From: Candidatus Hadarchaeota archaeon
Lineage (GTDB): Archaea; Hadarchaeota; Hadarchaeia; Hadarchaeales; JAGGTB01
Direction of reading: 5' to 3'
DNA: 64,000 bases
NCBI GenBank assembly: GCA_964384105.1
Contig: CAYLJV010000001.1
Coordinates: 348,900-412,899, forward strand
The notes under the pieces: generated by a model
Seen by the model: only the letters and a program-made list of their open reading frames with translations
Told to the model about the DNA's origin: nothing
The model's database searches: none
Shown here: in pieces, positions 25,056-49,928 of the stretch
How positions within the stretch are numbered: position 1 is the first letter of the stretch
Layout of the letters: every line of letters begins with the position of its first letter
Translations under genes and position numbers: made by a program

Positions 25056-26312
25056 ATGAAAAATAAGCAAATTTTATCAAAGGTAAGAGAAAACAGAGAG
25101 GAGCTTATAAATTTTGCTACTAAACTCATAAACTTCAAGACATCCAACCCTCCAGGTGAAAATTATCAAAGAGCTCAAAAATGGTTTGCAAAAAAGTTAC
25201 AAGAAATAGGTATGAAGGTTGAAACCTTCGAAATTTATCCTAATGAACCAAACGTGATTAGTTTATTGGAAGGATTAGGAAAAAAGACTTTGATTTTCAA
25301 TGGTCATATGGACGTTGCTCAGGTTAAGGAAAGTGAAAAATGGAACTTTGATCCTTTCAATGCCAAATATGACAAAGAATTTTTGTATGGAAGGGGTTCT
25401 ACCGATATGAAGGGAGGGTTGGCTGCAGTATACATTGCTATAAAAACACTTTGTGATAATGGATTCGATTTTAATCAAAATATAATGTTTCAATCTGTTG
25501 TGGGGGAGGAGGCAGGTGAACATGGCACCAAGATGGCCTTAGAAAAGGGATACACTGGAGATTTTGCTATTGTTCCAGAGCCCAACAACTTGAAAATACA
25601 AGGACAGGGAGGAGCAATTACTCTTTGGATTAAGCTGAAAAGCGACAGAGTATATCATGATGGTACGAGGAGAAAATTAATTCATGCAGGCGGTGGGATC
25701 GAAGGAGCTAGTATGATCGAAAAGGCTTGTAAAATCTTGATTGGTATGCAAGACTTAGAAAAATATTGGAGTGTGATGAAAAAGTATCCGGGCATGCCGC
25801 CGGGGGCAAATACGATAAATCCTTCCGTTATAAATGGCGGAAGAAATCCTGCATTTATTGCTGACGAATGCAAGGTTTGGTATAGTATACACTTCTTACC
25901 AAATGAAAAAGTAGAAGAAGTGAAAAAAGAAGTATCAACTCATATAGAAAAGGTTTCTGAATCGGATCCGTGGCTCAGAAATAATCCTCCAAAGTTGGAA
26001 TGGGGGGGAAATTCTTTATTTAAGGGAACTGGAGAAGTATTTCCGTCTGCCGAAATTGAAATAGAAAATTGTTTTGTTCAATCTTTCATAAAAAACTATG
26101 AAGATATTTTCGGAAAAAACCCTAAACCATCAATTTGGCCTTCAGTCAGTGATGCTGGTTGGTTTTCGGAGTTTGGGATACCTGTTGTCATATGTGGTCC
26201 TGGAAGAATAGAAGAAGCTCACTCCGTAAACGAAAAGGTAGAAATTGACCAACTTATTAAAGCTGCCGAGTTATATGCTAGTTACATTATTAACTTCTGT
26301 GAAGAAAGATAA
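25056..26312 (+). CDS. ylmB: M20 family hydrolase, YlmB-like N-formyl-aminomethylpyrimidine deformylase
   Basis: M20 motifs NGHMD, GRGSTDMKGG, GEE and AHSVNE. Segments I recall as typical of Bacillus YlmB: HDGTRRxxIHAGGG, GASxIEK, NTINPxVIxGGR, FIADEC, SDxWLR and WGGxS. Confidence 0.8.
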   Translation: MKNKQILSKVRENREELINFATKLINFKTSNPPGENYQRAQKWFAKKLQEIGMKVETFEIYPNEPNVISLLEGLGKKTLIFNGHMDVAQVKESEKWNFDPFNAKYDKEFLYGRGSTDMKGGLAAVYIAIKTLCDNGFDFNQNIMFQSVVGEEAGEHGTKMALEKGYTGDFAIVPEPNNLKIQGQGGAITLWIKLKSDRVYHDGTRRKLIHAGGGIEGASMIEKACKILIGMQDLEKYWSVMKKYPGMPPGANTINPSVINGGRNPAFIADECKVWYSIHFLPNEKVEEVKKEVSTHIEKVSESDPWLRNNPPKLEWGGNSLFKGTGEVFPSAEIEIENCFVQSFIKNYEDIFGKNPKPSIWPSVSDAGWFSEFGIPVVICGPGRIEEAHSVNEKVEIDQLIKAAELYASYIINFCEER

Positions 26313-26440
26313 GCTTTTAAGAATTAACAATACTACTATCGTACTATTTATTGTACTTGGGTTACTTGTAAACATTTTTTTATTAGTAAGCGGTATATTC
26401 TTTTAGTATTAATTAATTAGGTAAGTTATTGGTGTAATTT

Positions 26441-27466
26441 ATGAAATCAGTACGTTTTTATGGAAAAGATAAACCTCTCAAGGTTGAAGAGATAAAAGTT
26501 CCGGAAATAAGAAGCGAAGAAGTTTTAACTAAAGTTAAGGCTGCTGGTATTTGTCATACAGATTTACATTTTTTGGATGGAACTCTTGAGCCCTGGAAGG
26601 GCGAGTTACCATTGATCTTGGGTCATGAGGTTTCGGGTGAAGTTATAAGAACTGGCGAAGATGTCAAGAGTTTCAAAAAAGGCGATAGGGTAATCATTAA
26701 TAATAATCTGAACTGTGGTGAGTGTAAATATTGTAAATTTGGTCGCGAGAATCTCTGTTCGAATTTGGATCAATATGGTTTTACCGTGGATGGTGGGTAC
26801 GCGGAGATGATAAAAGTGAAGGAATCTAGTCTTTTGGAGTTGCCTGAGGAGATTCCTTTTGAAATAGGATCCATTTTACCTTGTTCTGTTGCATCAGTGT
26901 ACCATGGATTAGTCAAAATAGCGGATTTGAGAAAAAACGACACTTTGTTGATAAATGGGTTTGGTGGTTTAGGAAACAGTGCACTGCAAATAGCTAAGTA
27001 TTTGGAAGTTAGGACTTTGATAGTTGATGTTTCAGAGGAGAAGTTAAAGTCTGCTAGTGAAAATGGTGCTGACTTTGTAATAAACGCTGCTAAAGACAAT
27101 GTTATTGATAAAGTTATGGAATTTACAGAAGGGGAGGGATTAAATGCCGCTGTTGAATTTGTAGGCACAGCTACCTCGATGAAAAATGCTTTGGATTCTC
27201 TAGGAAAAATGGGTCGGTACTTAATTATTGGTTATACGAGTGATAAATTGGAGATTACTCCTTTGAATATGGTTGTCAATGAAATTGAAATATTGAGCTC
27301 AGTCGCTTATACCATGGAGGATTTGAAGGAGGTCGTCGAATTAGTGGCTGATGGGAAGATTGAACCAAAAATATCAAAGATAGTTAGTCTTGAGGAGATT
27401 CCCGCTACTTTAGAAGAATTGAGAAAAGGAAGAATAAAAGGAAGAGCCGTTGCTAAAATGGATTAG
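26441..27466 (+). CDS. Zn-dependent alcohol dehydrogenase (MDR)
   Basis: GICHTD, GHEVSG, structural Zn CGECKYC...C, and GFGGLG. Confidence 0.93.
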   Translation: MKSVRFYGKDKPLKVEEIKVPEIRSEEVLTKVKAAGICHTDLHFLDGTLEPWKGELPLILGHEVSGEVIRTGEDVKSFKKGDRVIINNNLNCGECKYCKFGRENLCSNLDQYGFTVDGGYAEMIKVKESSLLELPEEIPFEIGSILPCSVASVYHGLVKIADLRKNDTLLINGFGGLGNSALQIAKYLEVRTLIVDVSEEKLKSASENGADFVINAAKDNVIDKVMEFTEGEGLNAAVEFVGTATSMKNALDSLGKMGRYLIIGYTSDKLEITPLNMVVNEIEILSSVAYTMEDLKEVVELVADGKIEPKISKIVSLEEIPATLEELRKGRIKGRAVAKMD

Positions 27467-27566
27467 TTATTATTTTTTAATCAATTTTTTTGATATCGGG
27501 GAAAATAAAATAGATTCCACTATTTATAATAAAAATATAAATAGAAGTATCAAGGCTAATCAACTA

Positions 27567-29006
27567 ATGAAGACTGTTTTTGATGGGGGGAAGATTGTAA
27601 CGGGAGATGGAAATACTATCATCGAGAAAGGATATGTTGTCACTCATGATGGATTAATAACGGAGGTAGGAAAAGGCTCCTACTCTAAAACCCATAAGAG
27701 TGGTAGGATCATAGAAGCCAGTGACAAATTGATCATTCCTGGAATAATAAACCATCACGAACACTATCTAACATTTGGACCTGGAATTGTTGGGGAGTAT
27801 CCTTGGTACGAAGAGAAAGTTATAGAAAATTTAAATAAGCATATGCTTCAGGGTACTACCACCATACTCAATCAGGATGGGTTGATAACCCCAGAAGAGT
27901 TCGCTAAAACTAATTATTTACATCCGATAAATCTTAAGACCACAACCCTTCATATAAAACCGTATATTGAAGCGGCTGAGATAATCAGCGAATGTCCAGG
28001 ACTTTCGGAAGAACATAGGAAGCTTACGGTCGGTGAAATGGTGAATAATGGTGCTGTGGCTATTGGTGAAGTTGAAGAGTTGACAACACTATCTACTTTC
28101 TATTTTCCCAAAATTATCAAAAAAAGGACAGGATATTATATAACTTCTAAAGATGCTCGTCGACTACTAAGGGCCATACTCGGTAACGTTGATAACCCAC
28201 CGGATTTTGATCCTCAAAAAGTTAATAGTATCCTAGAGGATATTGACCTCGCAGAAAAATTAGACCCTGTTGAAATTAAAAATTTATTTGAAGAAACCAT
28301 CCTTAAACAACACAAGATTTGCAAGAAAGTTTATTCAGAAGCGGGAAGACTTGGTGCGAAATATAACATACCGGTTGTAGTACATTATAGTTTAGAATGC
28401 ATGAATTGGGTTGTTGAATTGGCTGAGAAATTTGCCAAAAAGGTTAATATTATAGCAGCTCATTGTGACTCAGTTACTTTTTCAGATGTTGAAGCTGCTA
28501 TAGAAACTACGAAGAAACTGAAGAAGATGGGGGTAATAGCCAATACTACTTCGTATATGAAAAATCACAATGAAATCACTGATATTTCGGCAAGGCTTTT
28601 CGAGGAAAATTTAGTCGATAACATATGCACTGATGGGATAATGGAACACGATTCTATACTATTCTTTATAGAGCGTCTTATGGAGGAAAATCTTGTGGGT
28701 TTATCGGAGGCGATAGCGATGGTTACTAGTAATGTGGTGGATGCGATTCCCAATCTTGCACCCCACAGGGGTCTGATAAAAGAAGGTAAAATAGCAGATT
28801 TGGTGCTTGTTGACGAGCAAGAAATCTCAAATGTAGAAAAAGTGATGATCGGTGGAGAAATTGTGGTTGAAAACGGTGCGAGGCCTAGAGAAGAAGTTCC
28901 CCTAATGGAGCCGTCCGTATATGATCCGGAAGGTAGGAATCCTGTAAGATCTTTATATACGAAATTACCAAGTAAGTTAACAAGAGAGAATAGTTGGTTG
29001 GTATAG
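27567..29006 (+). CDS. Divergent amidohydrolase-superfamily protein
   Basis: ATG 27567 (MKTVFDGGKIVTGDG) after TATA-like TTTATAAT. IIPGIINHHEH, GTTTI, ICTDG and GLIKEGKIADLV. Confidence 0.8.
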   Translation: MKTVFDGGKIVTGDGNTIIEKGYVVTHDGLITEVGKGSYSKTHKSGRIIEASDKLIIPGIINHHEHYLTFGPGIVGEYPWYEEKVIENLNKHMLQGTTTILNQDGLITPEEFAKTNYLHPINLKTTTLHIKPYIEAAEIISECPGLSEEHRKLTVGEMVNNGAVAIGEVEELTTLSTFYFPKIIKKRTGYYITSKDARRLLRAILGNVDNPPDFDPQKVNSILEDIDLAEKLDPVEIKNLFEETILKQHKICKKVYSEAGRLGAKYNIPVVVHYSLECMNWVVELAEKFAKKVNIIAAHCDSVTFSDVEAAIETTKKLKKMGVIANTTSYMKNHNEITDISARLFEENLVDNICTDGIMEHDSILFFIERLMEENLVGLSEAIAMVTSNVVDAIPNLAPHRGLIKEGKIADLVLVDEQEISNVEKVMIGGEIVVENGARPREEVPLMEPSVYDPEGRNPVRSLYTKLPSKLTRENSWLV

Positions 29007-29151
29007 TATTTCTGTAAAGAAGTTGTCTCATTTTTTAATTGCTTTTGATTTACGTAAGTTTGTTTAAATCCATACTAAAAAGGATTAAATTAATTGCTCT
29101 AGGTGCAAGAAATACTTATAGGATTTAAAATTCACTATTGTAACTCGTAGT

Positions 29152-29397: not shown

Positions 29398-29403
29398 TTA
29401 GAC

Positions 29404-34025: not shown

Positions 34026-34922
34026 CTACTTTTCAGTTCTTTCAAAAGGTTCCCCTAGAGCAGAGGGTATTACTTTACCAGCTCCGAAAAATGCCGAAAT
34101 GACTAATACTAATATAACTACAATATGGGGCAGTACACTCATAAACTCTTCAGGTAAAAAGGATATTCCAACCGCTTGTAATCTAAGCTGTAATCCCCCC
34201 ACAATAGAAAACAGGAAAGCACCGGGTAATAGATAATTAACATTCCATTTAGCGAACATAACTAAAACAAAACTTATCCAACCATATCCGGCTACCATAG
34301 TTCTGTATCCTTGCATAAAATTAATGAATAGATACGCTCCAGCTAACCCCATTAGGCCACAGCCTACTACGACACAAGCTAGTCTCACCCTATCTACTTG
34401 TATACCAACGGAATCGGCAGCCATCGGATCTTCCCCCACTGCGTTTATCCTTAGTCCCCATCCCGTCTTTTTTATTACGATAGCTAAGGCTAGCCAGATG
34501 GCTATAGATATATAAAAGATAGGGTCTAAAGAGAACAAAATTTTTCCAAAATTTTCGGTCGGTGGCGAACCGGAAAGATACAAGGTATAAATAAAAGCTG
34601 CTATACCTATACCTAAAAACCATAAACCAAATCCAACAACTACTTGATTAAGTTTTTCATATATTGATAGATATGAATTCATTATTCCAAATAAACACCC
34701 TCCGAAAAAACCCACAATCATAGAAGACCATATATTAGGCGTAACAAACCCGTAAAATACGATTGCCGTTATAGCACCAAAAGCCATGACCCCCTCTATT
34801 CCAATGTTATAAACTCCGCTTTTTTGACTCAACATTTCTCCAGTGGAAGCTATTAAATAGATAGGCATTATTGAAAGGGCGCCTAGAATAAGTTTTACCA
34901 ATGCATCTATCATAAATCCCAC
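34026..34922 (-). CDS. ABC permease (NupC-like)
   Basis: SGVYNIGIEG, GLRINAVGEDPMAADSVGI, GYGWISFV and PSALGEPF. Confidence 0.92.
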   Translation of the reverse strand: MGFMIDALVKLILGALSIMPIYLIASTGEMLSQKSGVYNIGIEGVMAFGAITAIVFYGFVTPNIWSSMIVGFFGGCLFGIMNSYLSIYEKLNQVVVGFGLWFLGIGIAAFIYTLYLSGSPPTENFGKILFSLDPIFYISIAIWLALAIVIKKTGWGLRINAVGEDPMAADSVGIQVDRVRLACVVVGCGLMGLAGAYLFINFMQGYRTMVAGYGWISFVLVMFAKWNVNYLLPGAFLFSIVGGLQLRLQAVGISFLPEEFMSVLPHIVVILVLVISAFFGAGKVIPSALGEPFERTEK

Positions 34923-35956
34923 CTTTTTTCAAGTATGTTTAAAATTAAAGTTGAAACAAATACAATTCCGATTGATAAATTTGCAAATGCAGAAGACAAA
35001 CCTAGAGATTTAAGAGCAGCTGCTCCCATAAGTATGCCCCCTACAAAAAAAGAAGTGAAGAGGGTAAGTTCGGGACGCAACCTTGCAATTAGTAAGCAAA
35101 CGATTGCATAAAATCCAAAGTTACCTGTAATTCCCCCCACTCCAAAGAAAAATTCACCAACCACAAGGGAGGTACCTGCTAACCCACAAATAGCTCCACT
35201 TAAAAACATTGCTAAAATTGTTATACGTCCCGAATTAATTCCTGCATATTCTGCAGCGTATGGATTCTTTCCGACTACATTTAACTTAAAACCGAAGCAT
35301 GTTTTATTCATTAACAGATATATAATTGGAATCAACGCAAGAGCAAATAGAAATATAGTGTTTAGTGGTTCGATTATGAATGGAAAACGAAGACTATTAG
35401 GTATAAAATCCGTTCTTGGATACGCTATTAGGCCGGCAGGATTCCAGGGACCAGCTATTAGGTAGCTGAGAAAAGCAAGCACTATAAAATTCTGCATTAG
35501 TGTAATGGGTATTTCGTGTATTTCCATTTTTGATTTTAAGAAGCCTGCGAATGAGCCCCAAATACCTCCTAAAAAGAAACTCAATGAAAATGCAAGGATG
35601 ATAATCAATATACTTGGAAGGTCGATAAATAAACAAACCCCCAAAGTTGCGATTACTCCAAGAGCAATTTGTCCTTCTCCACCTACATTCCAAAGCTTGG
35701 ATTTAAAAGCAATAAGTAAACCGAGCGATGTAATTAAAAGAGGAACAGTTTTTGTCATTGAATTTAAAATGCCGGATTTCGAAAAAAAGCTGCCATTAAA
35801 AAAAGCTTTTGAAACATCGAAAAAAGGAACATTTTCGAAAGACGATATAGCCAACAAGCCGAGACTAACTGCAGAAAAAACAATAACTAAAAAAAGGAGG
35901 GGTTTGCTCAATAGCCTAGCCAATTTTCCTGGAGATAAATTTATTTTTTTGGCCAT
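34910..35956 (-). CDS. ABC permease (NupB-like)
   Basis: LWNVGGEGQ, VVGKNPYAAEYAGIN and GNFGFYAIV. Confidence 0.92.
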   Translation of the reverse strand: MAKKINLSPGKLARLLSKPLLFLVIVFSAVSLGLLAISSFENVPFFDVSKAFFNGSFFSKSGILNSMTKTVPLLITSLGLLIAFKSKLWNVGGEGQIALGVIATLGVCLFIDLPSILIIILAFSLSFFLGGIWGSFAGFLKSKMEIHEIPITLMQNFIVLAFLSYLIAGPWNPAGLIAYPRTDFIPNSLRFPFIIEPLNTIFLFALALIPIIYLLMNKTCFGFKLNVVGKNPYAAEYAGINSGRITILAMFLSGAICGLAGTSLVVGEFFFGVGGITGNFGFYAIVCLLIARLRPELTLFTSFFVGGILMGAAALKSLGLSSAFANLSIGIVFVSTLILNILEKRWDL

Positions 35957-35963
35957 AGAAATC

Positions 35964-37828: not shown

Positions 37829-38231
37829 CATAAAATCTATATAATACCAAGGCACCTATTATTAAACATATGTCTAAAACCTTGGAAAGTATATTGGGGG
37901 AGTACAAGGATAAAACTAGTGAATCAAAGAAAGTATGGGAAAGGCTCAGAAAGAGTATTGTCGATGGTGTAGGATGTGCGGGTAGATACTATAGACCCTA
38001 TCCCCTTGTTGTAGATAAAGCTGAAGGGTCTCGAATTTGGGATGTTGATGGTAATGAGTACATCGACTTTTACTTTGATTGGGGTCCACTGGTTTTAGGG
38101 CATTCCAACCCGAAGATTGTAAAAGCCCTTAAGGAGCAGGCTGAAAAGGGAACCATGTATGGTCTGCCTTACGAAAAACTAGCAGATTATGTTGAGGAGT
38201 TAAAGAAGCGTTATCCTGCTGATCTTTTTAG
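37829..38231 (+). repeat. 403-bp direct repeat, copy 1 (promoter plus 5' part of aminotransferase 1)
   Basis: No mismatch found on manual reading against 39685-40087 (offset 1856). Confidence 0.9.
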
Positions 38232-39213
38232 ATTGACAAACTCAGGTACTGAAGCAACATTGCATGCAATAAGGACTGCAAGAGGATATACGGGTAAGGA
38301 TAAGATAGTGAAGATGGAGGGGGGTTTCCACGGAATTCATAATGATGTACTCGTAAGCTTTTACCCACCGGTAAGTAAAGTTGGTCCCAGCTGGGCGCCT
38401 TCACCGTATTTGGACTCATCAGGGGTCCCCTCGGATACAAGGAAAAACACTTTGGTGGCTCCTTTTAATGATATAGCTGCTCTTGAGAGTCTTTTCAGGA
38501 AACATGAGGGTGAAATTGCTGCTGTGATAGTGGAGCCGGTAATGTTGTTTCATGGGGTGATTCCGCCAAAGGAAGGCTATCTGAAAAATGTCAGGAAGCT
38601 CACCGAGGAATACAATGTTGTTCTAATTTTTGATGAGGTTAAAACTGGGAGCAAAATTGCTTATGGTGGAGCCTGTAAATATTTTGATGTTGTCCCAGAC
38701 ATGTTAACTTTGGGTAAAGCTATTGGATGTGGCCTGCCAATTGCTGCTTTTGGTGGTAAGGAGGAGATAATGAACGAAGTTAGCCAGCAGGGATCAGGGG
38801 TACATATCGGAACTTACAATGGAAACCCACTTTCTATTAGTGGTGGCCTGGCGGGTCTTAGGAGTCTAACGAGAGATGTGTACAAAAAAATGGACAAGTT
38901 AAGTGAAATGTTAGGAGATGGAATTCAAGATTGTCTGGATGATGAGGGGTTAACTGGTCGTGTTCAACGCGTGTCGAGTATTGGGGCAGTATATTTAGGG
39001 ATAAGTGAAGAGATTAGAAACTTTAGAGAGGCTGCTCGGGTTAATATAGATTTAGGTTGGAGGTACTGGCTTTCCATGGTGAATGAGGGGATATTTTTCT
39101 CGCCGGGTACTGGTGCTGGTGGAAATTGGCATCTTTCGAGTGTACATACTAAGCGGGATATAGAAAAAGTTCTAGAAAAGAACAAAATGATAATTCAGGA
39201 ACTTAGTGATTAG
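37870..39213 (+). CDS. Class III PLP aminotransferase, GSA-aminomutase-like (paralog 1)
   Basis: WDVDGNEYID, NSGTEAT, GGFHG, LIFDEVKTG, GKAIGCGLP and GTYNGNP. Confidence 0.9.
   Translation: MSKTLESILGEYKDKTSESKKVWERLRKSIVDGVGCAGRYYRPYPLVVDKAEGSRIWDVDGNEYIDFYFDWGPLVLGHSNPKIVKALKEQAEKGTMYGLPYEKLADYVEELKKRYPADLFRLTNSGTEATLHAIRTARGYTGKDKIVKMEGGFHGIHNDVLVSFYPPVSKVGPSWAPSPYLDSSGVPSDTRKNTLVAPFNDIAALESLFRKHEGEIAAVIVEPVMLFHGVIPPKEGYLKNVRKLTEEYNVVLIFDEVKTGSKIAYGGACKYFDVVPDMLTLGKAIGCGLPIAAFGGKEEIMNEVSQQGSGVHIGTYNGNPLSISGGLAGLRSLTRDVYKKMDKLSEMLGDGIQDCLDDEGLTGRVQRVSSIGAVYLGISEEIRNFREAARVNIDLGWRYWLSMVNEGIFFSPGTGAGGNWHLSSVHTKRDIEKVLEKNKMIIQELSD
38854..38939 (+). repeat. 86-bp identical block shared with 40710-40795
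   Basis: Manual alignment at offset 1856. Confidence 0.85.
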
Positions 39214-39301
39214 TATTCTATCGCAATTATTACTCAACAGAAATGGGTAGTTAGTGCAGGGACTTAAATATACAAATATACAAAGTTAACAGTGTTATAA
39301 A

Positions 39302-39598
39302 ATGGTGAAGGTTAGGATAATACCAAAAGTGAAAAACTCCCCTAAAGAAACCGTAATCAAAGGTGAATCAGTAAAAGATGTTATATTGAAATTGCATGAA
39401 AAGCATAGCATCCCCAAGAAAATATATAATAAACATTTAAAGAAGATGATAAGTCCGTTTAGGGGTTTAATAGTACTCCTAAATGGGAAAGCAGTTGGAA
39501 ATTTTGCGGACAAAGAGTATGTCCCGCTATCTGGAGTCGACCAATCAGTTAAAGAAGAAGACGAAATTATTATTATTTTTCCTGCTGCTGGAGGATAA
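39302..39598 (+). CDS. MoaD/ThiS/SAMP ubiquitin-like protein
   Basis: beta-grasp size, VLLNG, and C-terminal IFPAAGG. Confidence 0.88.
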   Translation: MVKVRIIPKVKNSPKETVIKGESVKDVILKLHEKHSIPKKIYNKHLKKMISPFRGLIVLLNGKAVGNFADKEYVPLSGVDQSVKEEDEIIIIFPAAGG

Positions 39599-39684
39599 CT
39601 ACGGTAAATTCTATTAATAGAAACTACGAAGTTGGGTTACTGCAGTTATTCAATTTCTAAAATAATTTTTTGGAATTAAGTGAG

Positions 39685-40087
39685 CATAAAATCTATATAA
39701 TACCAAGGCACCTATTATTAAACATATGTCTAAAACCTTGGAAAGTATATTGGGGGAGTACAAGGATAAAACTAGTGAATCAAAGAAAGTATGGGAAAGG
39801 CTCAGAAAGAGTATTGTCGATGGTGTAGGATGTGCGGGTAGATACTATAGACCCTATCCCCTTGTTGTAGATAAAGCTGAAGGGTCTCGAATTTGGGATG
39901 TTGATGGTAATGAGTACATCGACTTTTACTTTGATTGGGGTCCACTGGTTTTAGGGCATTCCAACCCGAAGATTGTAAAAGCCCTTAAGGAGCAGGCTGA
40001 AAAGGGAACCATGTATGGTCTGCCTTACGAAAAACTAGCAGATTATGTTGAGGAGTTAAAGAAGCGTTATCCTGCTGATCTTTTTAG
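39685..40087 (+). repeat. 403-bp direct repeat, copy 2
   Basis: Matches 37829-38231. Confidence 0.9.
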
Positions 40088-41069
40088 GTTAACAAATTCT
40101 GGCACGGAGGCAACAATGCACGCTATAAGAACTGCAAGAGGCTATACTGGTAAAGATAAAATAGTAAAAATGGAGGGGTGCTTCCACGGTTCTCATAATG
40201 ATGTACTCGTAAGTATATTCCCACCATTGGGCAAGGCAGGTCCAAGCTGGGCTCCTTCTCAGCATTTGGCTTCTTCCGGTGTTCCAGCGAATATAAAGGA
40301 AAATACATTAATCGCGCCCTTTAATAATATAGAGTCTTTAGAGAATCTTTTTAAGAAACATCAGGGAGAAATTGCGGCTGTAATAATGGAGCCGGTTCCT
40401 ATGTTTATGGGAGTAGTTCCACCGATGGATGGTTATCTAGAAGCTGTTAGGGAGCTTACTGAGGAACATAATGTTGTTTTGATATTTGACGAGGTCAAGA
40501 CTGGATGTAAAATTGCTTACGGAGGCGCCTGTGAATATTTCGATATAGTTCCTGATATGATAGCTTTAGGTAAAGCTATAGGGTGTGGTTTACCAATTGG
40601 GGCTTTTGGAGGTAAGGAAGAGATAATGAGTGAAATTAGTCATGGAGGTTCTGGGAAACATATGGGAACTTATAATGCAAATCCACTTTCTATTAGCGGC
40701 GGCTTGGCAGGTCTTAGGAGTCTAACGAGAGATGTGTACAAAAAAATGGACAAGTTAAGTGAAATGTTAGGAGATGGAATTCAAGATTGTCTGGAAGACG
40801 AAGGTATAATCGGCCGTGTACAACGTGTATCCAGTATTGGGGCAATATATCTAGGTATAGATGAAGAAGTGACGAACCTTCGAGAGGCAGCTAGCGTTGA
40901 TATGGCTTTAGGTTGGAGGTACTGGCTTTCGATGCTTAATGAAGGAATTCTTTTCTCGACGGGTACTGGTGCTGGCGGGAATTGGCATCTTTCGAGTGTT
41001 CATACGAAGCAGGATATAGAAGAGGTTCTAGAAAAAAACAGGGTGGTATTACAACAGATTAAGGATTGA
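39726..41069 (+). CDS. Class III PLP aminotransferase, GSA-aminomutase-like (paralog 2)
   Basis: Same motifs as paralog 1; central part diverged (GCFHG, PMFMG, GTYNANP). Confidence 0.9.
   Translation: MSKTLESILGEYKDKTSESKKVWERLRKSIVDGVGCAGRYYRPYPLVVDKAEGSRIWDVDGNEYIDFYFDWGPLVLGHSNPKIVKALKEQAEKGTMYGLPYEKLADYVEELKKRYPADLFRLTNSGTEATMHAIRTARGYTGKDKIVKMEGCFHGSHNDVLVSIFPPLGKAGPSWAPSQHLASSGVPANIKENTLIAPFNNIESLENLFKKHQGEIAAVIMEPVPMFMGVVPPMDGYLEAVRELTEEHNVVLIFDEVKTGCKIAYGGACEYFDIVPDMIALGKAIGCGLPIGAFGGKEEIMSEISHGGSGKHMGTYNANPLSISGGLAGLRSLTRDVYKKMDKLSEMLGDGIQDCLEDEGIIGRVQRVSSIGAIYLGIDEEVTNLREAASVDMALGWRYWLSMLNEGILFSTGTGAGGNWHLSSVHTKQDIEEVLEKNRVVLQQIKD
40710..40795 (+). repeat. 86-bp identical block shared with 38854-38939
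   Basis: Manual alignment. Confidence 0.85.
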
Positions 41070-41778: not shown

Positions 41779-41978
41779 AAAATTTTCACATCTTTATAAT
41801 GGGTTTATTTTTACAAAATTTTAAAGTATATAATTCTTTGGCATATTTGTTCAGTACTTTGTTCTTTTTACTTTATATCTAATATCTACATTGAAACCGT
41901 GCTCTCTTTGTGATATCAAACATATTCATTACTGGACCTTCAGTAAGCTATATATACAACCGTTTGAGACTTTTACAT

Positions 41979-42458
41979 ATGCTTTACTTAAGACCAGAAA
42001 AATGTGTTGGATGTAGGTCTTGTGAACTTGCTTGTTCGTTTGAACATTATAAAGAAAATAATCCGGCGAGGGCTTTAATTTATGTTGTAAAAGAGGAGGA
42101 GGGTATAGACTATCCAGTCATATGTCAACATTGTGACGATGCCCCCTGTATAGAGGTCTGCCCTAAAGACGCTATTATTAGGGATCCTGATACAAATGCA
42201 GTAAAAATTCTAAGAGATGAGTGTATCGGATGTAGAGCTTGTATTAATGTTTGTCCTTTTGGCGCTATATTTGTGGATCCCAAAACGGGTGATGTTTTTA
42301 AGTGTGACTTATGTGATGGGAATCCTAAGTGTGCCGAAATTTGTCCCGTTGATGCTATCATATTTGATTCGAGGAAGGATGTTGGACCACGATTGCTCAG
42401 TCGTTCTAAGTCCAGTGATATTGTTAAATATATAAGAAAAGATAGGAGTGAAAAGTGA
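41979..42458 (+). CDS. 4Fe-4S dicluster (DmsB/NrfC-like) subunit preceding AOR 3
   Basis: CVGCRSCELAC, CQHCDDAPCIEVCP, CIGCRACINVCP and CDLCDGNPKCAEICP. ATG at 41979. Confidence 0.9.
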   Translation: MLYLRPEKCVGCRSCELACSFEHYKENNPARALIYVVKEEEGIDYPVICQHCDDAPCIEVCPKDAIIRDPDTNAVKILRDECIGCRACINVCPFGAIFVDPKTGDVFKCDLCDGNPKCAEICPVDAIIFDSRKDVGPRLLSRSKSSDIVKYIRKDRSEK

Positions 42459-44370
42459 AATGTTTGGGTGGAACGATACAAATTTAAGAATAGACTTGGA
42501 TCGCCAGAAAATCGTAAAGGAACCCTTGAGCGAGGAACTTGCAATGAATTTTTTGGGAGGGGCGGGTATAAACGCAAAGATTTTGTACGATGAGACTGGT
42601 CCAGAAGTTGGACCGTTAGATCCAGGGAACAGATTAATTTTTGGAACTGGTCCTCTTTGTGGAACTTTAGCTCCGGGAAGTGCTCGATACGAGGCCACTG
42701 CTAAAGGACCATTAACGTTTGCTTTTAGCGATAGTAACTCGGGTGGTCATTTTGGTCCAGAGATTAAGTACGCAGGTTATGAGCATGTTATATTTCAGGG
42801 TAGGGCAAAAAACCCGGTATACTTATGGATTGATGATGATCATGTTGAGCTAAAAGACGCTAGCCAATTATGGGGTGAGGATGTCTGGGTGACCGATGAA
42901 GTGATAAAAGAAGAAATTGGGGATCCAGATTTGAAAATTGCTGCAATTGGCCCTCCTGGCGAAAATCTTGTTCGCTATGCTGCTGTGATAAATGATAGAG
43001 CTAGGGCTCTAGGTTGGAGTGGTACAGGGGCCGTTATGGGTTCAAAAAATCTCAAAGCTATTGCTGTTAGGGGAACGAAAGGAGTTCAGTTGGCTGATCC
43101 AGAGGAATTTGAAAGAATAAGTAAAAAGTGCCGAGAAATGGTTTTGAATTCTCAATTGATGGAGACTTATGGCTACTATGGAAAACCATATTTGAACTAT
43201 TTGAGAAATGAACTTCAAAAATCTAATCCAACAAAGAACTATAAACTACCTAGAGTTCCTTCTTCCGAATTCCCAAAGGTTGGAAATGAGGCCTTTGATG
43301 AATTAATAATAGGGTGGAAATCTTGCTTTAACTGTCCTCTTCATTGTGGACATATGCTTGAAGCAAAATCGGGTCCTTATTCAGGTTTGAAGGGGGAAGG
43401 ATTTGAATATAACCAGCAGATCGATGGGCAGATGATGGGAATATATGATCTGAATTTTGTTCTCAAGTGGACTGTAGAAACGAATCGATTAGGGTTTGAC
43501 TGTGATGGTCCAGCCTATGCTATTGCATGGGCTATGGAGCTATGGGAGAAGGGTTTGATTTCTGAGAAGGATACGGATGGAATAGAGCTAGTTTGGGGAA
43601 ATAAAGATGCTGCTCTTTCTATGCTAGATAAGATAGCTAAGCGCGAAGGCTTTGGAGATTTACTAGCGGAGGGTATAGAAGTTGCGGCCAAAAAGTTTGG
43701 GAAAAATTCAAGCGATTTTGCTTATCATATAAAGGGTGGTAGGATTGAAATAGATCCTCGGACTGGTTGGGCCACAGCACTATCACATGCTACATCTACT
43801 CGTGGGTCAGACCATCTTAAGGGCATGCCACTTAGCGATGCTTTTGGTGTTTGGAAAGGAATCCCATATGATTTTACTGATGATAGTGATACTGAGTATA
43901 AACATGAGGCAGTGATCTTCTTTGAAAATATGAATGCTGTTGTAGACTCGATAGGTTTGTGTAAAAATCCTACGTGGGTGCAGAGCGAAGAGTGCCCTGG
44001 CTTGAATGAATTTGCGGCTCTTCTTACTGCAGCTACTGGTCACGAGTTTACAGCTGAGAAACTTTTGTCGATTGGAGAGAGAATATATAATGTTGAAAGA
44101 GCGTATAATGCGAGAGAAGGGCTTACTCGAGAAGATGACACCCCTCCAAAAAAATTCTTTGAAGAACCTATAGATACTAAAATAAAAGTATTGGATAGAG
44201 AGACATTTGAAAAATTAAAGGACAAGTATTATGATGCGCGTGGTTGGGATGTTGATACAGGTAGACCTTTGAGAAAAAAATTGGAAGAGCTTGGATTGAC
44301 TTACATAGCAGATGATCTGGAAGACAGAAATGTTGAGGCGCGAAGTCGTGGGAGAAAGGTGGAGGTGTGA
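42448..44370 (+). CDS. aor: Aldehyde:ferredoxin oxidoreductase family protein 3
   Basis: GGHFGPEIKYAGY, GAVMGSKNLKA, CFNCPLHC, GFEYN, DSIGLC and YYDARGWD. Confidence 0.9.
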   Translation: MKSEMFGWNDTNLRIDLDRQKIVKEPLSEELAMNFLGGAGINAKILYDETGPEVGPLDPGNRLIFGTGPLCGTLAPGSARYEATAKGPLTFAFSDSNSGGHFGPEIKYAGYEHVIFQGRAKNPVYLWIDDDHVELKDASQLWGEDVWVTDEVIKEEIGDPDLKIAAIGPPGENLVRYAAVINDRARALGWSGTGAVMGSKNLKAIAVRGTKGVQLADPEEFERISKKCREMVLNSQLMETYGYYGKPYLNYLRNELQKSNPTKNYKLPRVPSSEFPKVGNEAFDELIIGWKSCFNCPLHCGHMLEAKSGPYSGLKGEGFEYNQQIDGQMMGIYDLNFVLKWTVETNRLGFDCDGPAYAIAWAMELWEKGLISEKDTDGIELVWGNKDAALSMLDKIAKREGFGDLLAEGIEVAAKKFGKNSSDFAYHIKGGRIEIDPRTGWATALSHATSTRGSDHLKGMPLSDAFGVWKGIPYDFTDDSDTEYKHEAVIFFENMNAVVDSIGLCKNPTWVQSEECPGLNEFAALLTAATGHEFTAEKLLSIGERIYNVERAYNAREGLTREDDTPPKKFFEEPIDTKIKVLDRETFEKLKDKYYDARGWDVDTGRPLRKKLEELGLTYIADDLEDRNVEARSRGRKVEV

Positions 44371-44483: not shown

Positions 44484-45467
44484 ATGATAGTTGATATTCA
44501 TAGCCATATTATAACTGAGTCTTACTTGGATGAACTCTCTAGTAGGAAGAATGTTCCGAGAATAGAAAGTAAGGGCGACGGAGTCTATACTATTCATTGT
44601 AGCGATTTTCTTTCTTACGACTTTGATGAAAGAATGTATGATTTAGATAGAAAGTCTGAGGACATGAAAAAAGCGGGGGTTGATATGCAAATAATTAGTA
44701 TAGCAATGCCAGGAGTTAATAATTTAAAACCAAAAAATGCTGTCAATCTTGCACGATCAGTTAACAACGAAATTGCAGATATTGTGGAGAAAAGGCCGGA
44801 TACTTTTGATGGTGTGGCCACTCTTCCATTTATAGATACAGAAGAGGCTCTAAAAGAGTTGGATAGAGCAATAAATGATTTGGATTTGAAAGGTATTTCT
44901 GTTTCATCTAATATAGCTGGTAGAGGCTTAGATGATAAGGCCTTTTGGCCAGTTTATGAAAAAGTTTCTAATTTAAATATACCTATTTTGGTACATCCGA
45001 CTGTTCCTATCATGGGAGATAAGTTGACGAAGTACGGTCTGAATACAGTTGTCGGCTTTGTTTTTGATTCCACAGTAGCTACACTAAATATGGTTTTTGG
45101 TGGAGTCTTTGAACGCTTTCCAGACCTGAAGGTTGTGGTTCCTCACGCTGGTGGAACAATTCCTTATCTCATCAAGAGGATAGATCATCAATATACGATA
45201 AATCCGAATTGTCGAGAGAAAATCTCAAAAAAACCTAGTGAATATCTGAAATCAATTTACGTGGACACGGCTCAATCTACTTGTGATACTTCTATGAACT
45301 GCGTTAGATCGTTGATGGGAATTGACAAGGTTGTTTTTGGAAGTGATTATCCGTTTTGTTCGCTTGAGGATTCTGTGAATTCGATTAAAGAGATTGGCTT
45401 TTCCGACGAAGAGCTGAATGATATATTTGTGAAAACGGCAGAGAATATTTTTGACTTATCAGATTAG
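44484..45467 (+). CDS. Amidohydrolase_2 family, ACMSD/iso-orotate-decarboxylase-like
   Basis: DIHSH, ILVHPT, VPHAGGTIP and FGSDYPF. Confidence 0.85.
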   Translation: MIVDIHSHIITESYLDELSSRKNVPRIESKGDGVYTIHCSDFLSYDFDERMYDLDRKSEDMKKAGVDMQIISIAMPGVNNLKPKNAVNLARSVNNEIADIVEKRPDTFDGVATLPFIDTEEALKELDRAINDLDLKGISVSSNIAGRGLDDKAFWPVYEKVSNLNIPILVHPTVPIMGDKLTKYGLNTVVGFVFDSTVATLNMVFGGVFERFPDLKVVVPHAGGTIPYLIKRIDHQYTINPNCREKISKKPSEYLKSIYVDTAQSTCDTSMNCVRSLMGIDKVVFGSDYPFCSLEDSVNSIKEIGFSDEELNDIFVKTAENIFDLSD

Positions 45468-45516: not shown

Positions 45517-45538
45517 AAACGAAAGTTTTATTAACCAC
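45517..45538 (+). promoter_or_regulatory. BRE/TATA promoter, class A (thiolase operon)
   Basis: AAACGAAAGTTTTATTAACCAC; TATA starts 34 nt before the start codon; matches 49087 and 55469. Confidence 0.7.
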
Positions 45539-45560
45539 TGAAGGGAAATTAATCTAGCTC

Positions 45561-46733
45561 GTGGTGAAAAAAGTGCGTGATGTTGCAATAGTTGGAATAG
45601 GTATGACCGAGTTTGGTCGACTTGATGGTAATCTTACAGATATTGCATGCGATGCAGCGCTTCAAGCAATGCATGATGCAAATGCTGAAGAAAAAGAGTT
45701 TGATGCATTGTACTTTTCAAATATGGCTTCGGGTGCTTTCAATAGCCAAACCGCTGTAGCAAGTTCAATTGCCGATCGTTTAAGTTTACTTCCTGCCGAT
45801 GCGCATCGTATAGAAAATGGTCCCGCTTCTGGGGGTTCGGGAATAAGAAGCGCTTTGATGGGGGTTGCATCTGGATTTCAAGACCTGGTTTTGGTAGTTG
45901 GTGCTGAAAAAATGACTGATGTGAGCGGAGATGTAGCTACAGATATTCTTTCTTCTATGAACCATCCTGAGGCAGAGTATAAACATGGAGTTACGATGCC
46001 TGGCATGGGTGCTTTGTATACAAGGCTTTATATGAAGGAGTATGGGGTTACGGAGGATGAATTTGCTGCTGCTGCCGCAAAGAATCACATTAATGCTACT
46101 AAGAATCCCAAAGCGCAACTTAGACATAAGGAAGCTACTATTGAGGGAGTAAAGGATTCAATAATGGTTGCAGATCCTATTAGATTGTATCATACCTGCC
46201 CAGTGACAGATGGTGCTGCCGCATTAGTTTTATGTCCGTTGGATATGGTTGAAGAGTTTTCGAAGAAACCTGTTAGAATACTTGGCTCTGGACAGGCTAC
46301 AGATACGATGTCTCTAGAGGAACGCGATAATCCGTTGAGGCTTAAGAGTGTAGAAATTGCTTCGGATGAGGCCTTTAAGATGGCAGGTTTGAGTCGTAAG
46401 GATATTGATATAGCTGAGGTGCATGATGCATTTATAACACTAGAATTAGCTGAATTGGAAGCAGCTGGATTCTTCCCTGCAGGGAAGGCAGGTAAAGCTA
46501 CTCTAGAAGGAAAGACAAAATTAGATGGCGAATTTCCAGTAAACACTTCTGGTGGACTAAAAGCCAGAGGTCACCCAGTAGGAGCCACGGGAATTTCCCA
46601 AGCAGTTGAGTTGGTTACTCAGATTAGGGGGGAAGCAGGTGAAAGACAGGTTAAAAAAGCTAAAAATGGTTTCTGTTGCAACTTTGGTGGATTTGGTAAT
46701 AATACTGTAGTACATATTTTAGGAGGGATCTGA
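45561..46733 (+). CDS. Thiolase-superfamily (SCP-x type) protein lacking the nucleophilic Cys
   Basis: VAIVGIGMT, ENGPASGG (canonical ExACASG), AEVHDAF, NTSGGLKARGHPVGATG and CCNFGG. Confidence 0.85.
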   Translation: MVKKVRDVAIVGIGMTEFGRLDGNLTDIACDAALQAMHDANAEEKEFDALYFSNMASGAFNSQTAVASSIADRLSLLPADAHRIENGPASGGSGIRSALMGVASGFQDLVLVVGAEKMTDVSGDVATDILSSMNHPEAEYKHGVTMPGMGALYTRLYMKEYGVTEDEFAAAAAKNHINATKNPKAQLRHKEATIEGVKDSIMVADPIRLYHTCPVTDGAAALVLCPLDMVEEFSKKPVRILGSGQATDTMSLEERDNPLRLKSVEIASDEAFKMAGLSRKDIDIAEVHDAFITLELAELEAAGFFPAGKAGKATLEGKTKLDGEFPVNTSGGLKARGHPVGATGISQAVELVTQIRGEAGERQVKKAKNGFCCNFGGFGNNTVVHILGGI

Positions 46734-46735
46734 AA

Positions 46736-47107
46736 GTGGCGGGAAATGAGATTAAAGGTTACGAATGTAAAAATTGTGGGAGGCTAGGCCATATTGCTGG
46801 AAGAAGGTGCCTGAGCTGTAAAGGAACAGAATTTGAGGAAATTAAACTGGGTGATAAAGCTGTGCTTAGAACATATACGCAGATTTACAATATCCCTGCT
46901 GGCGTGAATGTTGACCCTCCTCTAATGATTGGCTTGTTGGAATTTGATAATGGTGTCAAGGTCGTAGGACAGTTGAACGTTGATGACCCTGAGGACTTGG
47001 GGGTTGGTAAGAAATTCGAACCCGAATGGTCAAAGCTTAGGGAGATTCAAGGTAAGGAAGTTTTTGGTTTTAGGTTCAAGCTCGTTGAAAGCTCAAAGGA
47101 GGGATAG
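46736..47107 (+). CDS. DUF35 Zn-ribbon/OB-fold protein (thiolase partner)
   Basis: CKNCG...CLSC followed by an OB-fold region; directly after the thiolase. Confidence 0.88.
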   Translation: MAGNEIKGYECKNCGRLGHIAGRRCLSCKGTEFEEIKLGDKAVLRTYTQIYNIPAGVNVDPPLMIGLLEFDNGVKVVGQLNVDDPEDLGVGKKFEPEWSKLREIQGKEVFGFRFKLVESSKEG

Positions 47108-47109
47108 AA

Positions 47110-47799: not shown

Positions 47800-47976
47800 T
47801 TTTTCGCTTAGTATCTGTACTAGGTAAATTTATTTTTGATTTTAATATTTTATCTCTAAAAATGAATAATGGTTATTTAATGTTCTAAGCTTAAGGAAAG
47901 GCCAAGAGTAGTTGATTTTCTTAAAATCCAGATAATTTAGCACAAACTTGGTTTTGATTAGGGGTTTTAAAGAATT

Positions 47977-48525: not shown

Positions 48526-48710
48526 TTAGCATTCATTCCTTTACTTTCAAAATAAAGGTCATAAATTCAATTGGTTTATCCTGTCAATAAATAAAAACTT
48601 CTGCATAAAACATCAATATTTTCTAGGGTATTAGCCATACAAATAAGTACTAAATTTGTGTGATAAAAACCAGAATAGATAGATCACCTTTTGAAATTAA
48701 AACATCGAAC

Positions 48711-48930
48711 ATGAAGGGGCCGGGAACGTTACCTCTTTCGCGGACAGGTTGTTGCCTATACTTTAAAAAACCGGCTTCCAGCCGATACAGAGCCTGTCGG
48801 AGCGCCCGACCCCCGTGCCCCCGTAGCTGTGCAAACAAGGAGGTGAGAAACTCCTGCGGGAACACTTAATCCGCTTGTGTTGTTGAACCAATTCAATGGT
48901 AGAGAATGCAACACGTGGCGGAAGCGTGAT
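48711..48930. ncRNA. Candidate structured RNA element of unknown class
   Basis: About 54% GC (119/220 counted) within AT-rich intergenic DNA, with many stems including overlapping alternatives; no family recognised. Confidence 0.4.
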
Positions 48931-48950
48931 AATTGAAGTAAAATTTAGGT

Positions 48951-48966
48951 CTTTTCAATTGAAAAG
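48951..48966. promoter_or_regulatory. Perfect 16-bp palindrome CTTTTCAATTGAAAAG, possible operator
   Basis: Loop-less inverted repeat between the structured element and the tenA promoter. Confidence 0.35.
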
Positions 48967-49086
48967 TTCTCGAGCTTCATCCCCCAACAGATTCACATAT
49001 AATTTTTTTCGACGGTCGTATAAAAATTTTTTTGTTTTAAGACTCGTAGAAGTTTTTCTTTTTAATATCTAATAATAAGGGTTATT

Positions 49087-49112
49087 AAACGAAAAGTTTA
49101 TTAACCACCGCT
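49087..49112 (+). promoter_or_regulatory. BRE/TATA promoter, class A (tenA)
   Basis: AAACGAAAAGTTTATTAACCACCGCT; 20/22 identical to 55469-55490. Confidence 0.7.
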
Positions 49113-49127
49113 TCAAAATTTACTACC

Positions 49128-49928
49128 GTGATGTCTTTGAGTTCTAAAAATACGAGAGAAGTATTGGTAGATGAATGGGAAAATAAATCTACTTTTGTTG
49201 ATCAATTGAGGGAGAAATACGATCATCTTTTCCAAAAAATTGCTGAACATCCATTTCTCCTAGAAATCGAGGAGGGAAAACTGCCGTTAGAGAAATTTTT
49301 ATTTTATGCTAAGCAAAATGAATATTACATATCTGAACTAAGATCAGCTGCTTCAGCTGGAGCTGCTCGGGCAACGACTGATTCTGAAAGAAGGATAATG
49401 ATGATGATTGTAAGCATGTTTCCACTGGAGTTATCTGAGTATTGTTTTGGAAAACTTTCTGTGGCAGCAGGTGTGCCGGATGAGGAGATTAAAGCCATAC
49501 TTGAAGATCCAGATTTCCCACTTCCAGCCACACGGGCATATACCGATTTTATGTACAAGGAGTTTGCGACCAAACCCGCGGGAGTAGCGACAGCGTCTTT
49601 CATAACTTGCCCCTGGACTTACAGCTCAGTGGATATTGGAGGTCTTTCGTGTGGTAAAACTTTTGCAAAAGCTCTGCATGACCATTATGGAGTCGACAAA
49701 AAGATCACTGAGGAATATATAGAACATTATGAAACAGACGAAGATTTTGCTATTGGTATAAAGGCTTTGAAAGATGCGGTGAATAAAGATGCGGAAGAGG
49801 GAAATGATAAAATGAGGAATATCCTAGAGTCTAATTTTAAAAGGGATGTAGAATACGAGTATATGTTTTGGGAGATGGCATACAAGCATAATCCTGGTAA
49901 GGAAAGGGAATTTGGTTCTTATTTCTAA
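49128..49928 (+). CDS. tenA: TenA-family protein (thiaminase II / aminopyrimidine aminohydrolase-like)
   Basis: HPFL, FLFYAKQNEYY, catalytic-type CPWTY, and EYMFWEMAY. Confidence 0.8.
   Translation: MMSLSSKNTREVLVDEWENKSTFVDQLREKYDHLFQKIAEHPFLLEIEEGKLPLEKFLFYAKQNEYYISELRSAASAGAARATTDSERRIMMMIVSMFPLELSEYCFGKLSVAAGVPDEEIKAILEDPDFPLPATRAYTDFMYKEFATKPAGVATASFITCPWTYSSVDIGGLSCGKTFAKALHDHYGVDKKITEEYIEHYETDEDFAIGIKALKDAVNKDAEEGNDKMRNILESNFKRDVEYEYMFWEMAYKHNPGKEREFGSYF

Follow-up and report, generated by a model that had tools for sequence, protein, structure and literature searches.

A conserved gene island with YlmB-like and Asn-type TenA genes in Hadarchaeales and its possible role in the anaerobic removal of pyrimidine side chains

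We analyzed a 64,000-nucleotide stretch of the genome of a Candidatus Hadarchaeota archaeon (hereafter the window; C1:348900-412899 of a 1.62-Mb assembly in 12 contigs, 90% complete), which encodes relatives of two enzymes of thiamine salvage, the M20 deacylase YlmB and the thiaminase II TenA. In Bacillus, base-degraded thiamine is salvaged through ThiXYZ import, the YlmB deformylase, TenA and ThiD (PMC10470507). In the archaeon, both genes lie in a gene island that is conserved from Hadarchaeales of another family to unrelated metagenome contigs and has not been described before; we found in the literature no description of such a gene cluster, nor of thiamine metabolism in Hadarchaeota. We propose, with confidence that is evenly balanced, that the YlmB-like and TenA-like proteins would catalyze two early steps of a conserved anaerobic system, which imports pyrimidines bearing a substituted methyl group at C5 and strips off this side chain, with vitamin salvage as a by-product.

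Results

Asn-type TenA and its gene context

The TenA-like protein is encoded by an open reading frame (ORF) at 49128-49928 on the plus strand, in which the ATG at 49131 is a likelier start than 49128, and matched PF03070 (TENA_THI-4) with 82.7 bits against a cut-off of 22. In the HMMER alignment to Bacillus subtilis TenA, its Cys160, Glu243, Tyr137 and Phe246 corresponded to Cys135, Glu205, Tyr112 and Phe208, and Asn63 stood at the position of Asp44 (KQN versus LQD). This alignment confirmed the first-pass annotation of the window, which had noticed that the catalytic-type Cys and Glu are kept and that QN replaces QD. Cys160 and Glu243 were invariant across 50 TenA homologues, while Asn63 was invariant within the clade of the long-form TenAs, which carry an insert of ~14 residues with a second conserved Cys (Cys174 in the window's protein) after the catalytic Cys, and a C-terminal R..G.YF tail. 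The AlphaFold2 model of the protein, based on a 50-sequence alignment, had a predicted local distance difference test (pLDDT) score of 94.8 and a heme-oxygenase-like all-helical fold, and its best PDB matches in Foldseek were all thiaminase II structures, with target-normalized TM-scores of up to 0.84 (0.77-0.83 for the top matches 2gm8, 3ibx, 1udd and 1yaf). The protein nevertheless missed the cut-off of the salvage_TenA equivalog TIGR04306 (77.9 bits versus 130).

In TenA, Asp44 binds the amino groups of the ligand, and the D44A substitution lowers the activity (PMC5623701). Among the best 150 TenA representatives drawn from 1.84 billion proteins, 130 carried Asp and 17 carried Asn at this position. 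The long-form clade is small, comprising six clusters at 50% identity with E <1e-30, and among the GTDB species representatives other than the window's own genome, only one genome, a Cytophagales metagenome-assembled genome (MAG), encoded a long-form TenA. Neither thiC nor thiD was found above the cut-off in this MAG, the completeness of which is not known.

We then gathered metagenome loci with an alignment of the TenA clade as the query, and recorded the residue at the Asp44 position and the neighboring genes for every TenA ORF in the fetched loci. The 27 Asn-type ORFs (QN or EN), from 18 loci, had island-family neighbors wherever the flank sufficed, and thiD or thiC was near none of them. 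The 29 loci with Asp-type TenA (QD) had no island-specific neighbors beyond generic ABC (ATP-binding cassette) ATPase matches, and thiD adjoined TenA in eight of them, together with thiC in one. The TenA tree indicated at least three origins of Asn; in it, the long-form clade (support of 95 in the Shimodaira-Hasegawa-like approximate likelihood ratio test, SH-aLRT) was separate from a short-form clade (SH-aLRT 100) that holds the two Hadarchaeales TenAs, both clades being linked to the island. Since this convergent change at a ligand-binding residue coincides with a single gene context, it argues for a functional shift of the Asn-type TenAs.

Between the flavodoxin gene and the TenA gene lies a GC-rich (~54%) stretch of 230 bp (48705-48935), with a hairpin and a T-run on the minus strand near 48770. 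The stretch matched no Rfam family, gave folding z-scores of -1.4 and -1.3, and showed no conservation upstream of the TenA homologues; the Rfam search upstream of TenA also yielded no match.

Conserved neighborhoods in Hadarchaeales and metagenomes

The window was compared with 60 other Hadarchaeales genomes (61 with its own genome, G000), including six sister species in its own genus, the seven genomes of a separate genus, g11, and G032, which belongs with its congener G052 to genus g16. In five Hadarchaeales genomes, genes for YlmB, a RidA-family protein and an Fe-dependent alcohol dehydrogenase (ADH) lie beside those for a ferredoxin-like protein (Fer4), an aldehyde:ferredoxin oxidoreductase (AFOR) and an Amidohydro_2 protein, and beside a deaminase gene paired with an AFOR gene of the 580-aa type. 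In genus g11, Amidohydro_2, AFOR (~635 aa) and the ferredoxin-like protein are encoded in this order on one strand and YlmB, RidA and Fe-ADH on the other, with a TRZ/ATZ amidohydrolase and the 580-aa-type AFOR alongside, and each is 48-71% identical to the window copy. In G032, TenA is flanked by a Bmp-type binding protein and a Zn-dependent ADH on one side and by the 580-aa-type AFOR on the other, with ABC permeases and a deaminase upstream of TenA and the Amidohydro_2 decarboxylase 11 kb upstream. Orthologues of the window's 580-aa AFOR, with 57-59% identity, adjoin TenA in G032 and are encoded close to YlmB in G037 and G059.

The same families recur around TenA in the metagenome loci. Amidohydro_2 is encoded directly upstream of an Asn-type TenA on the same strand in L014 and L071-L074. 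L061 and L063, which are parts of one 137-kb contig, contain two TenA copies among Fer4-AFOR-Amidohydro_2, deaminases, a Bmp transporter and a 518-aa amidohydrolase, and two to four TenA copies are found amid Bmp transporter genes in L069 and L070. Furthermore, L065/L066 combine, within 15 kb, AFOR-Fer4, Amidohydro_2-RidA-x-TenA-deaminase-TenA-TenA and YlmB-deaminase-ZnADH.

Directly upstream of the TenA-like gene in two loci (L063:9581-9862 and L062:889-1170), we also observed a 93-aa ORF for a MoaD/ThiS-like ubiquitin-fold protein ending in ...VGG, with no counterpart in the window, which may be a sulfur carrier for the pterin cofactor of AFOR.

The YlmB-like deacylase

The YlmB-like gene (25056-26312, plus strand) is an intact ORF of 418 aa with Peptidase_M20 and M20_dimer domains. 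Its product scored 534.2 bits against the equivalog NF006370/PRK08596 (cut-off 412) over residues 4-417, and of 14 control genomes only one passed the cut-off, namely the expected B. subtilis, the bearer of the characterized YlmB. The residues H84, D86, D117, E151, E152 and H389, corresponding to the general base and the M20 metal ligands other than the fifth (about E175), were kept in at least 97% of 120 homologues. The protein is 45-48% identical to the YlmBs of Bacillales/Bacillaceae, and its homologues reach 55-66% identity.

The M20 protein might instead be an ordinary deacylase of amino-acid biosynthesis, of the ArgE, DapE or LysK type and unrelated to pyrimidines, as the NCBI label of the NF006370 family, "acetylornithine deacetylase", would suggest; indeed, the protein also passed the broad DapE-ArgE subfamily model TIGR01910. 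However, it scored far beneath the cut-offs of the true ArgE equivalogs (116 bits versus 298 for TIGR01892 and 105 versus 460 for NF003474) and of all DapE models (90-181 bits against 284-439), so that the grouping with ArgE/DapE, which the first-pass annotation had weighed against a YlmB assignment, was not observed. In addition, the genome has a second M20 paralogue at C1:228126, and the YlmB-like gene is flanked by genes for ADH, AFOR and deaminase and not by arg or lys genes. The YlmB gene was not found in the six sister species or in two other searched genera of the family, and the protein is thus not expected to be a core biosynthetic enzyme. We therefore regard this alternative as highly improbable.

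In a tree of 71 YlmB sequences, the window's protein formed one clade with five other Hadarchaeales and five unnamed metagenome sequences (SH-aLRT 97), which was sister to a large clade of anaerobic bacterial MAGs. Since the Bacillales formed a clade of their own, the protein is Bacillus-like at the family level only, and the separate position of the Hadarchaeales clade argued against Bacillus as the origin of the gene.

Thiamine genes of the genome and the thiC relic

Profile searches found no thiD, thiE, thiM or ThiY within the window, and its three ABC systems are of the Bmp/BPD_transp_2 type and not ThiXYZ, in agreement with the first-pass annotation, which had proposed to locate thiD or thiDN elsewhere. 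Indeed, an intact thiDN of 448 aa is present ~160 kb past the window end (C1:572406-573674), as the sole Phos_pyr_kin/ThiN match in the genome, which also has two full-length thi4 genes. ThiE and ThiM gave no genome match above the cut-off, and the genome has no thiamine pyrophosphate (TPP) riboswitch. A ThiY/THI5 route was considered and rejected, as the only NMT1/ThiY-type binding protein, on contig 10 beside a PAS-TFIIB gene, is SsuA-like and below the cut-offs. Searches for CytX, NMT1 and the TPP riboswitch found no other thiamine or hydroxymethylpyrimidine (HMP) importer; ThiT, ThiW, PnuT and ThiBPQ were not searched.

The sole ThiC match in the genome is an ORF of 74 aa (G000:C2:144652-144837; L003:1480-1704, minus strand), in which the first ~25 and the last ~50 residues of ThiC are fused in frame and the CX2CX4C motif is retained. 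It is flanked by a branched-chain aminotransferase gene on one side and by genes for 273-aa and 179-aa proteins on the other, as is the full-length thiC in three sister species, and each end of the relic aligns with one end of the sister-species thiC, the aligned segments being ~1 kb apart there. Because the relic thus occupies the syntenic slot with both thiC ends, the comparison indicates that thiC was lost through an internal deletion of roughly 1 kb in place, and an assembly gap is ruled out as the cause of the missing gene. With thiC lost and thiDN kept, the organism would therefore need a pyrimidine from outside for ThiDN.

Distribution of the island and of thiC

Among the 60 other genomes, five of the seven from g11 and G032 were the only ones with a YlmB-family match above the cut-off. 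Close homologues of the window's Amidohydro_2 protein (44-51% identity) occur in four YlmB-bearing g11 genomes and in G032, with a weaker one (35%) in G051. In turn, thiC was found in 52 of the 60 relatives; those without a thiC match were six of the seven genomes of g11, G032 and one 67%-complete genome. The genomes without thiC keep thiDN, except for G047 (82% complete) and G058 (67% complete), in which it was not found. Three separate lineages thus combine the presence of the island with the absence of thiC, namely the present species within its own genus, genus g11, and G032 relative to its congener G052.

Gene inventory of the island

The features of the window are collected in Table 1. 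As the first-pass annotation had read it, the YlmB-like gene heads a plus-strand run with a Zn-ADH and an amidohydrolase, both of which we located on the same strand.

Table 1. Features of the window discussed in the text (positions count from the first nucleotide of the window)
Feature	Position	Strand	Basis and orthologues
Intron-bearing tRNA gene, left edge of the region without sister-species match	2252-2348	+	Rfam tRNA, 55 bits; ARAGORN
Transglutaminase/Big_1 surface-type protein, 970 aa	9074-11986		Within the species-specific stretch
TRZ/ATZ-type amidohydrolase (deaminase-like), paralogue A	13060-14385	-	Amidohydro_1, 260 bits; 59-61% orthologues in TenA loci L061, L058
Bmp/PnrA-type ABC substrate-binding protein	14465-15496	-	PF02608; homologues flank Asn-type TenA in L058, L061, L069, L070, L074
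TRZ/ATZ-type amidohydrolase, paralogue B	16389-17726	-	Amidohydro_1; 64% orthologues adjoin YlmB-FeADH in G037, G059
Fe-dependent ADH	17979-19115	-	Fe-ADH; 48-50% orthologues just downstream of YlmB (with or without RidA between) in Hadarchaeales loci L053-L057, L060
ABC transporter set 1	19293-22902	both	Double ATPase on minus, two BPD_transp_2 permeases on plus
AFOR, 580 aa, divergent from YlmB	23001-24743	-	AFOR_N + AFOR_C
YlmB-family M20 deacylase, candidate N-formyl/acyl-aminomethylpyrimidine deacylase	25056-26312	+	NF006370, conserved residues, tree
Zn-dependent ADH	26441-27466	+	ADH_N + ADH_zinc_N; 53-57% orthologues near YlmB or TenA in L065, L073, L058
Divergent 518-aa amidohydrolase, possible ring-opening hydrolase	27450-29006	+	Weak Amidohydro_1 match; 53-55% orthologues in L061, L070
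Second AFOR, 644 aa	29404-31338	+	
ABC transporter set 2 (two permeases + double ATPase)	34026-37475	-	
Two class-III (omega) aminotransferases	37870-41069	+	Aminotran_3, 230 and 247 bits
Ferredoxin-like 4Fe-4S protein + AFOR (640 aa)	41910-44370	+	55-71% orthologous pairs in L053-L056, L061, L065
Amidohydro_2, non-oxidative decarboxylase branch	44484-45467	+	PF04909, 129 bits
Asn-type TenA, long form	49131-49928	+	PF03070, alignment, AlphaFold2 model, tree
TRZ/ATZ-type amidohydrolase, paralogue C, just downstream of TenA	50110-51426	+	Amidohydro_1, 246 bits; 47-50% orthologues among TenA copies in L065, L070
ABC permease pair 3 + AllG-family protein	51543-54722	+	AllG homologues adjoin Amidohydro_2 + TenA in L067, L071

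Against the PDB, the Amidohydro_2 protein matched ACMSD (4e-43), LigW (9e-37), γ-resorcylate decarboxylase (9e-30) and uracil-5-carboxylate (isoorotate) decarboxylase, IDCase (8e-27), which places it by homology in the predicted branch of enzymes that remove a carboxylate adjacent to an amino, hydroxy or oxo group. Paralogue C of the TRZ/ATZ-type amidohydrolases matched methylthioadenosine/S-adenosylhomocysteine deaminase (2e-61) and also 8-oxoguanine deaminase, and the 518-aa amidohydrolase gave N-terminal matches to molinate hydrolase and enamidase only.

Several further genes were noted in the window. A thiolase-like protein followed by a 123-aa BbsA/DUF35-like OB-fold protein (45561-47107) represents the archaeal thiolase-partner arrangement inside the island. 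A short TFIIB-repeat protein of 191 aa is encoded within the island at 54808-55383, and on contig 10 a 392-aa PAS-domain/TFIIB fusion (G000:C10; L101:162-1340) adjoins the SsuA/NMT1-type binding protein; either protein might be an archaeal transcription factor that responds to a ligand. A run of genes at 55511-63462, encoding a GlcD-like FAD protein, CCG-domain proteins, EtfB/EtfA and an HdrA-like protein, looks like an electron-bifurcating dehydrogenase module; the sister species share its right-hand part (~60.4-64 kb), and the FAD/CCG pair is also found beside the TenA-like genes in L062 and L063.

Origin of the region

DNA comparison with the six sister species showed that window positions 1-2182 and the tRNA gene are conserved at 68-71% identity, and ~60,400-64,000 at 66%, while ~2,350-58,400 (~56 kb) gave essentially no matches, apart from short paralogous stretches. 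In the sister genomes, the counterparts of the two window flanks are found on separate contigs, no att-type direct repeat of the tRNA 3' end was found at the far side of the region, and the base composition of the region is unremarkable. A species-specific stretch of ~56 kb that starts at a tRNA gene fits acquisition but is not proof of it. Horizontal acquisition of the YlmB-like gene, as suggested in the first-pass annotation, is thus in keeping with the absence of a sister-species counterpart, but a Bacillus source is at odds with the tree, which groups the protein with Hadarchaeales and not with Bacillales; if acquired, the region probably came from other archaea or anaerobes.

Discussion

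Based on the gene content, we infer the substrate, the order of the steps and the direction of flux as follows. The Bmp-type ABC systems would import formylamino- or aminomethyl-pyrimidines derived from thiamine breakdown, or close analogues, and YlmB would take off the N-acyl group to leave -CH2-NH2. The Cys-dependent TenA would then swap the amine for water to yield -CH2OH, the product being HMP if the ring is 4-amino-2-methylpyrimidine. Subsequently, the Zn- or Fe-ADH would oxidize the alcohol to the aldehyde, AFOR with ferredoxin would convert the aldehyde into the 5-carboxylate, and the ACMSD/IDCase-type Amidohydro_2 protein would release CO2, so that the side chain would pass overall through -CH2-NH-acyl → -CH2-NH2 → -CH2OH → -CHO → -COOH → -H. 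Finally, the TRZ/ATZ deaminases and the 518-aa amidohydrolase, with RidA and the class-III aminotransferases, might deaminate and open the ring. ThiDN could also draw on the HMP intermediate, and this would account for the ability of the island carriers to dispense with thiC.

The first-pass annotation had suggested that YlmB and TenA feed degradation. This part is supported in that Asn-type TenA and YlmB recur alongside a decarboxylase, AFOR, ADHs and deaminases and in no case alongside thiD, but the annotation missed salvage, which is probably also in play alongside degradation, because thiDN and two thi4 genes are kept, thiC is a relic, and the island coincides with the absence of thiC. Taken further, the island might be the first gene-level route for the anaerobic breakdown of HMP, or of 5-(aminomethyl/hydroxymethyl)pyrimidines, in which an Asn-type TenA feeds an ADH-AFOR-decarboxylase sequence and the carriers use the HMP intermediate and hence discarded thiC; this extended version is offered tentatively, as it is more apt to fail than to hold.

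One alternative is pure vitamin salvage, in which YlmB and TenA would only make HMP for ThiDN as in Bacillus, while their neighbors hitch-hike in a general scavenging island. The deletion of thiC in situ with the retention of thiDN and thi4, the match between thiC absence and YlmB presence, and the conservation of all TenA catalytic residues but Asp44 would suit this explanation, and Asn could still accept a hydrogen bond from the 4-amino group. However, the same neighborhood recurs in lineages that are very far apart, where the decarboxylase gene immediately precedes TenA on the same strand, one locus may contain two to four TenA paralogues, and Asn-type TenAs never adjoin thiD, whereas Asp-type TenAs often do. 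The sole bacterial genome found with a YlmB-TenA pair, of completeness not known, moreover has neither thiC nor thiD above the cut-off. We thus consider salvage as the only function decidedly unlikely.

The island might also act on other N-heterocycles, such as uracil-type 5-substituted pyrimidines from modified nucleic acids, purine-derived intermediates or pterins, with a shifted specificity and no formation of HMP, in which case thiC would have been lost through another means of HMP or thiamine import. Given the role of Asp44 in binding the ligand amino groups, the convergent Asn would fit a ring with N3-H and C4=O; the presence of AllG, RidA/RutC-like proteins, several deaminases and binding proteins of the Bmp/PnrA type points to nucleobase catabolism; the decarboxylase is akin to uracil-5-carboxylate decarboxylase; and g11 genomes without TenA also lack a detected thiC. 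Nonetheless, the M20 protein lies above the YlmB equivalog cut-off and is 45-48% identical to the Bacillales enzymes, the YlmB-TenA pairing mirrors the thiamine pathway, the importer searches described above (CytX, NMT1 and the TPP riboswitch, but not ThiT, ThiW, PnuT or ThiBPQ) gave no other candidate, and the close tie to thiC loss would have to be a coincidence. Other heterocycles as the true substrates therefore seem to us an unlikely, if serious, alternative.

The proposed stripping of C5 side chains with salvage as a by-product also faces several difficulties of its own. G059 holds both YlmB and thiC, and it is 71% complete with two thiD copies. These copies lie on its contigs C43 and C6, one of them being interrupted by a stop and located on the same small contig as the only thiC of g11. 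Because of this low completeness and the two thiD copies, one of them beside thiC on a small contig, G059 may be a mixed bin. The pattern of island and thiC comprises only three independent lineages, and hence few events, as related genomes do not count as independent observations; no TenA-family gene accompanies YlmB in four to five of the g11 genomes; and in the window itself YlmB and TenA are 23 kb apart. In seawater, the thiamine breakdown products are picomolar (PMC10470507). Such a supply would be too small as an energy source for a 40-50 kb island with three importers, and the main substrates may thus be other heterocycles. The Asn at the Asp44 position may signal a 4-oxo and not a 4-amino ring, in which case HMP would not be an intermediate. 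Furthermore, AFOR and ADH can also run reductively.

Genome and ocean surveys usually treat TenA and YlmB as indicators of vitamin B1 salvage. Counting the Asn-type TenA/YlmB subset among the salvage genes may be wrong, because a decarboxylase, AFOR, ADHs and deaminases accompany this subset in every case, and thiD in none. If the proposed reading holds, the island would offer candidates for the genes that decide what becomes of the thiamine pyrimidine, or of similar 5-substituted pyrimidines, in anoxic sediments, and it would amount to an oxygen-free counterpart of the thymine 7-hydroxylase/IDCase route. The loss of thiC, apparently by internal deletion in lineages that gained an island for import and processing, would be a clean case of the loss of a biosynthetic gene, which bears on the evolution of vitamin auxotrophy in subsurface archaea.

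The salvage of base-degraded thiamine in Bacillus, reportedly established by Jenkins et al. in 2007, employs the same two enzyme families in consecutive steps, and the Cys/Glu/Tyr/Phe set of TenA and the M20 metal ligands are kept in the archaeon, which, having lost thiC, would likewise need an outside pyrimidine. In contrast to Bacillus, however, Bmp-type ABC systems replace ThiXYZ, the genes show no association with thiD, thiE or a TPP riboswitch, Asn takes the place of Asp44, the TIGR04306 score stays below the cut-off, and the ADH, AFOR, decarboxylase and deaminase neighbors have no role in salvage. Thiaminase II is divided into the TenA_C and TenA_E subfamilies (PMC10470507, PMC10277260). 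The window protein shares the TenA fold and, like TenA_C, has the active-site Cys, but differs from both subfamilies, as Zallot et al. are said to have distinguished them in 2014, in the recurrent Asn for Asp44, the long-form insert with its second conserved Cys, the C-terminal tail and the gene context.

In fungal thymidine salvage, thymine 7-hydroxylase and isoorotate decarboxylase (IDCase structures 4HK5 and 4LAK) convert thymine into uracil. The proposed archaeal route would similarly take the C5 side chain through CH2OH, CHO and COOH to its removal by an Amidohydro_2 enzyme, in line with the IDCase match of the window decarboxylase, although this protein is closer to ACMSD than to IDCase, and the oxidation would be oxygen-independent, relying on ADH, a tungsten-type AFOR and ferredoxin where the fungal route uses a 2-oxoglutarate dioxygenase. 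The enterobacterial and clostridial gene set for anaerobic purine use includes an SsnA-type aminohydrolase and the YgeY M20 hydrolase, and the island shares with it TRZ/ATZ-like aminohydrolases, an M20 hydrolase and the carbamoyltransferase-associated AllG. Its matches to the SsnA and YgeY models, however, are below the cut-offs, the window showed no xanthine dehydrogenase, and the TenA, AFOR and decarboxylase of the island are foreign to the purine pathway.

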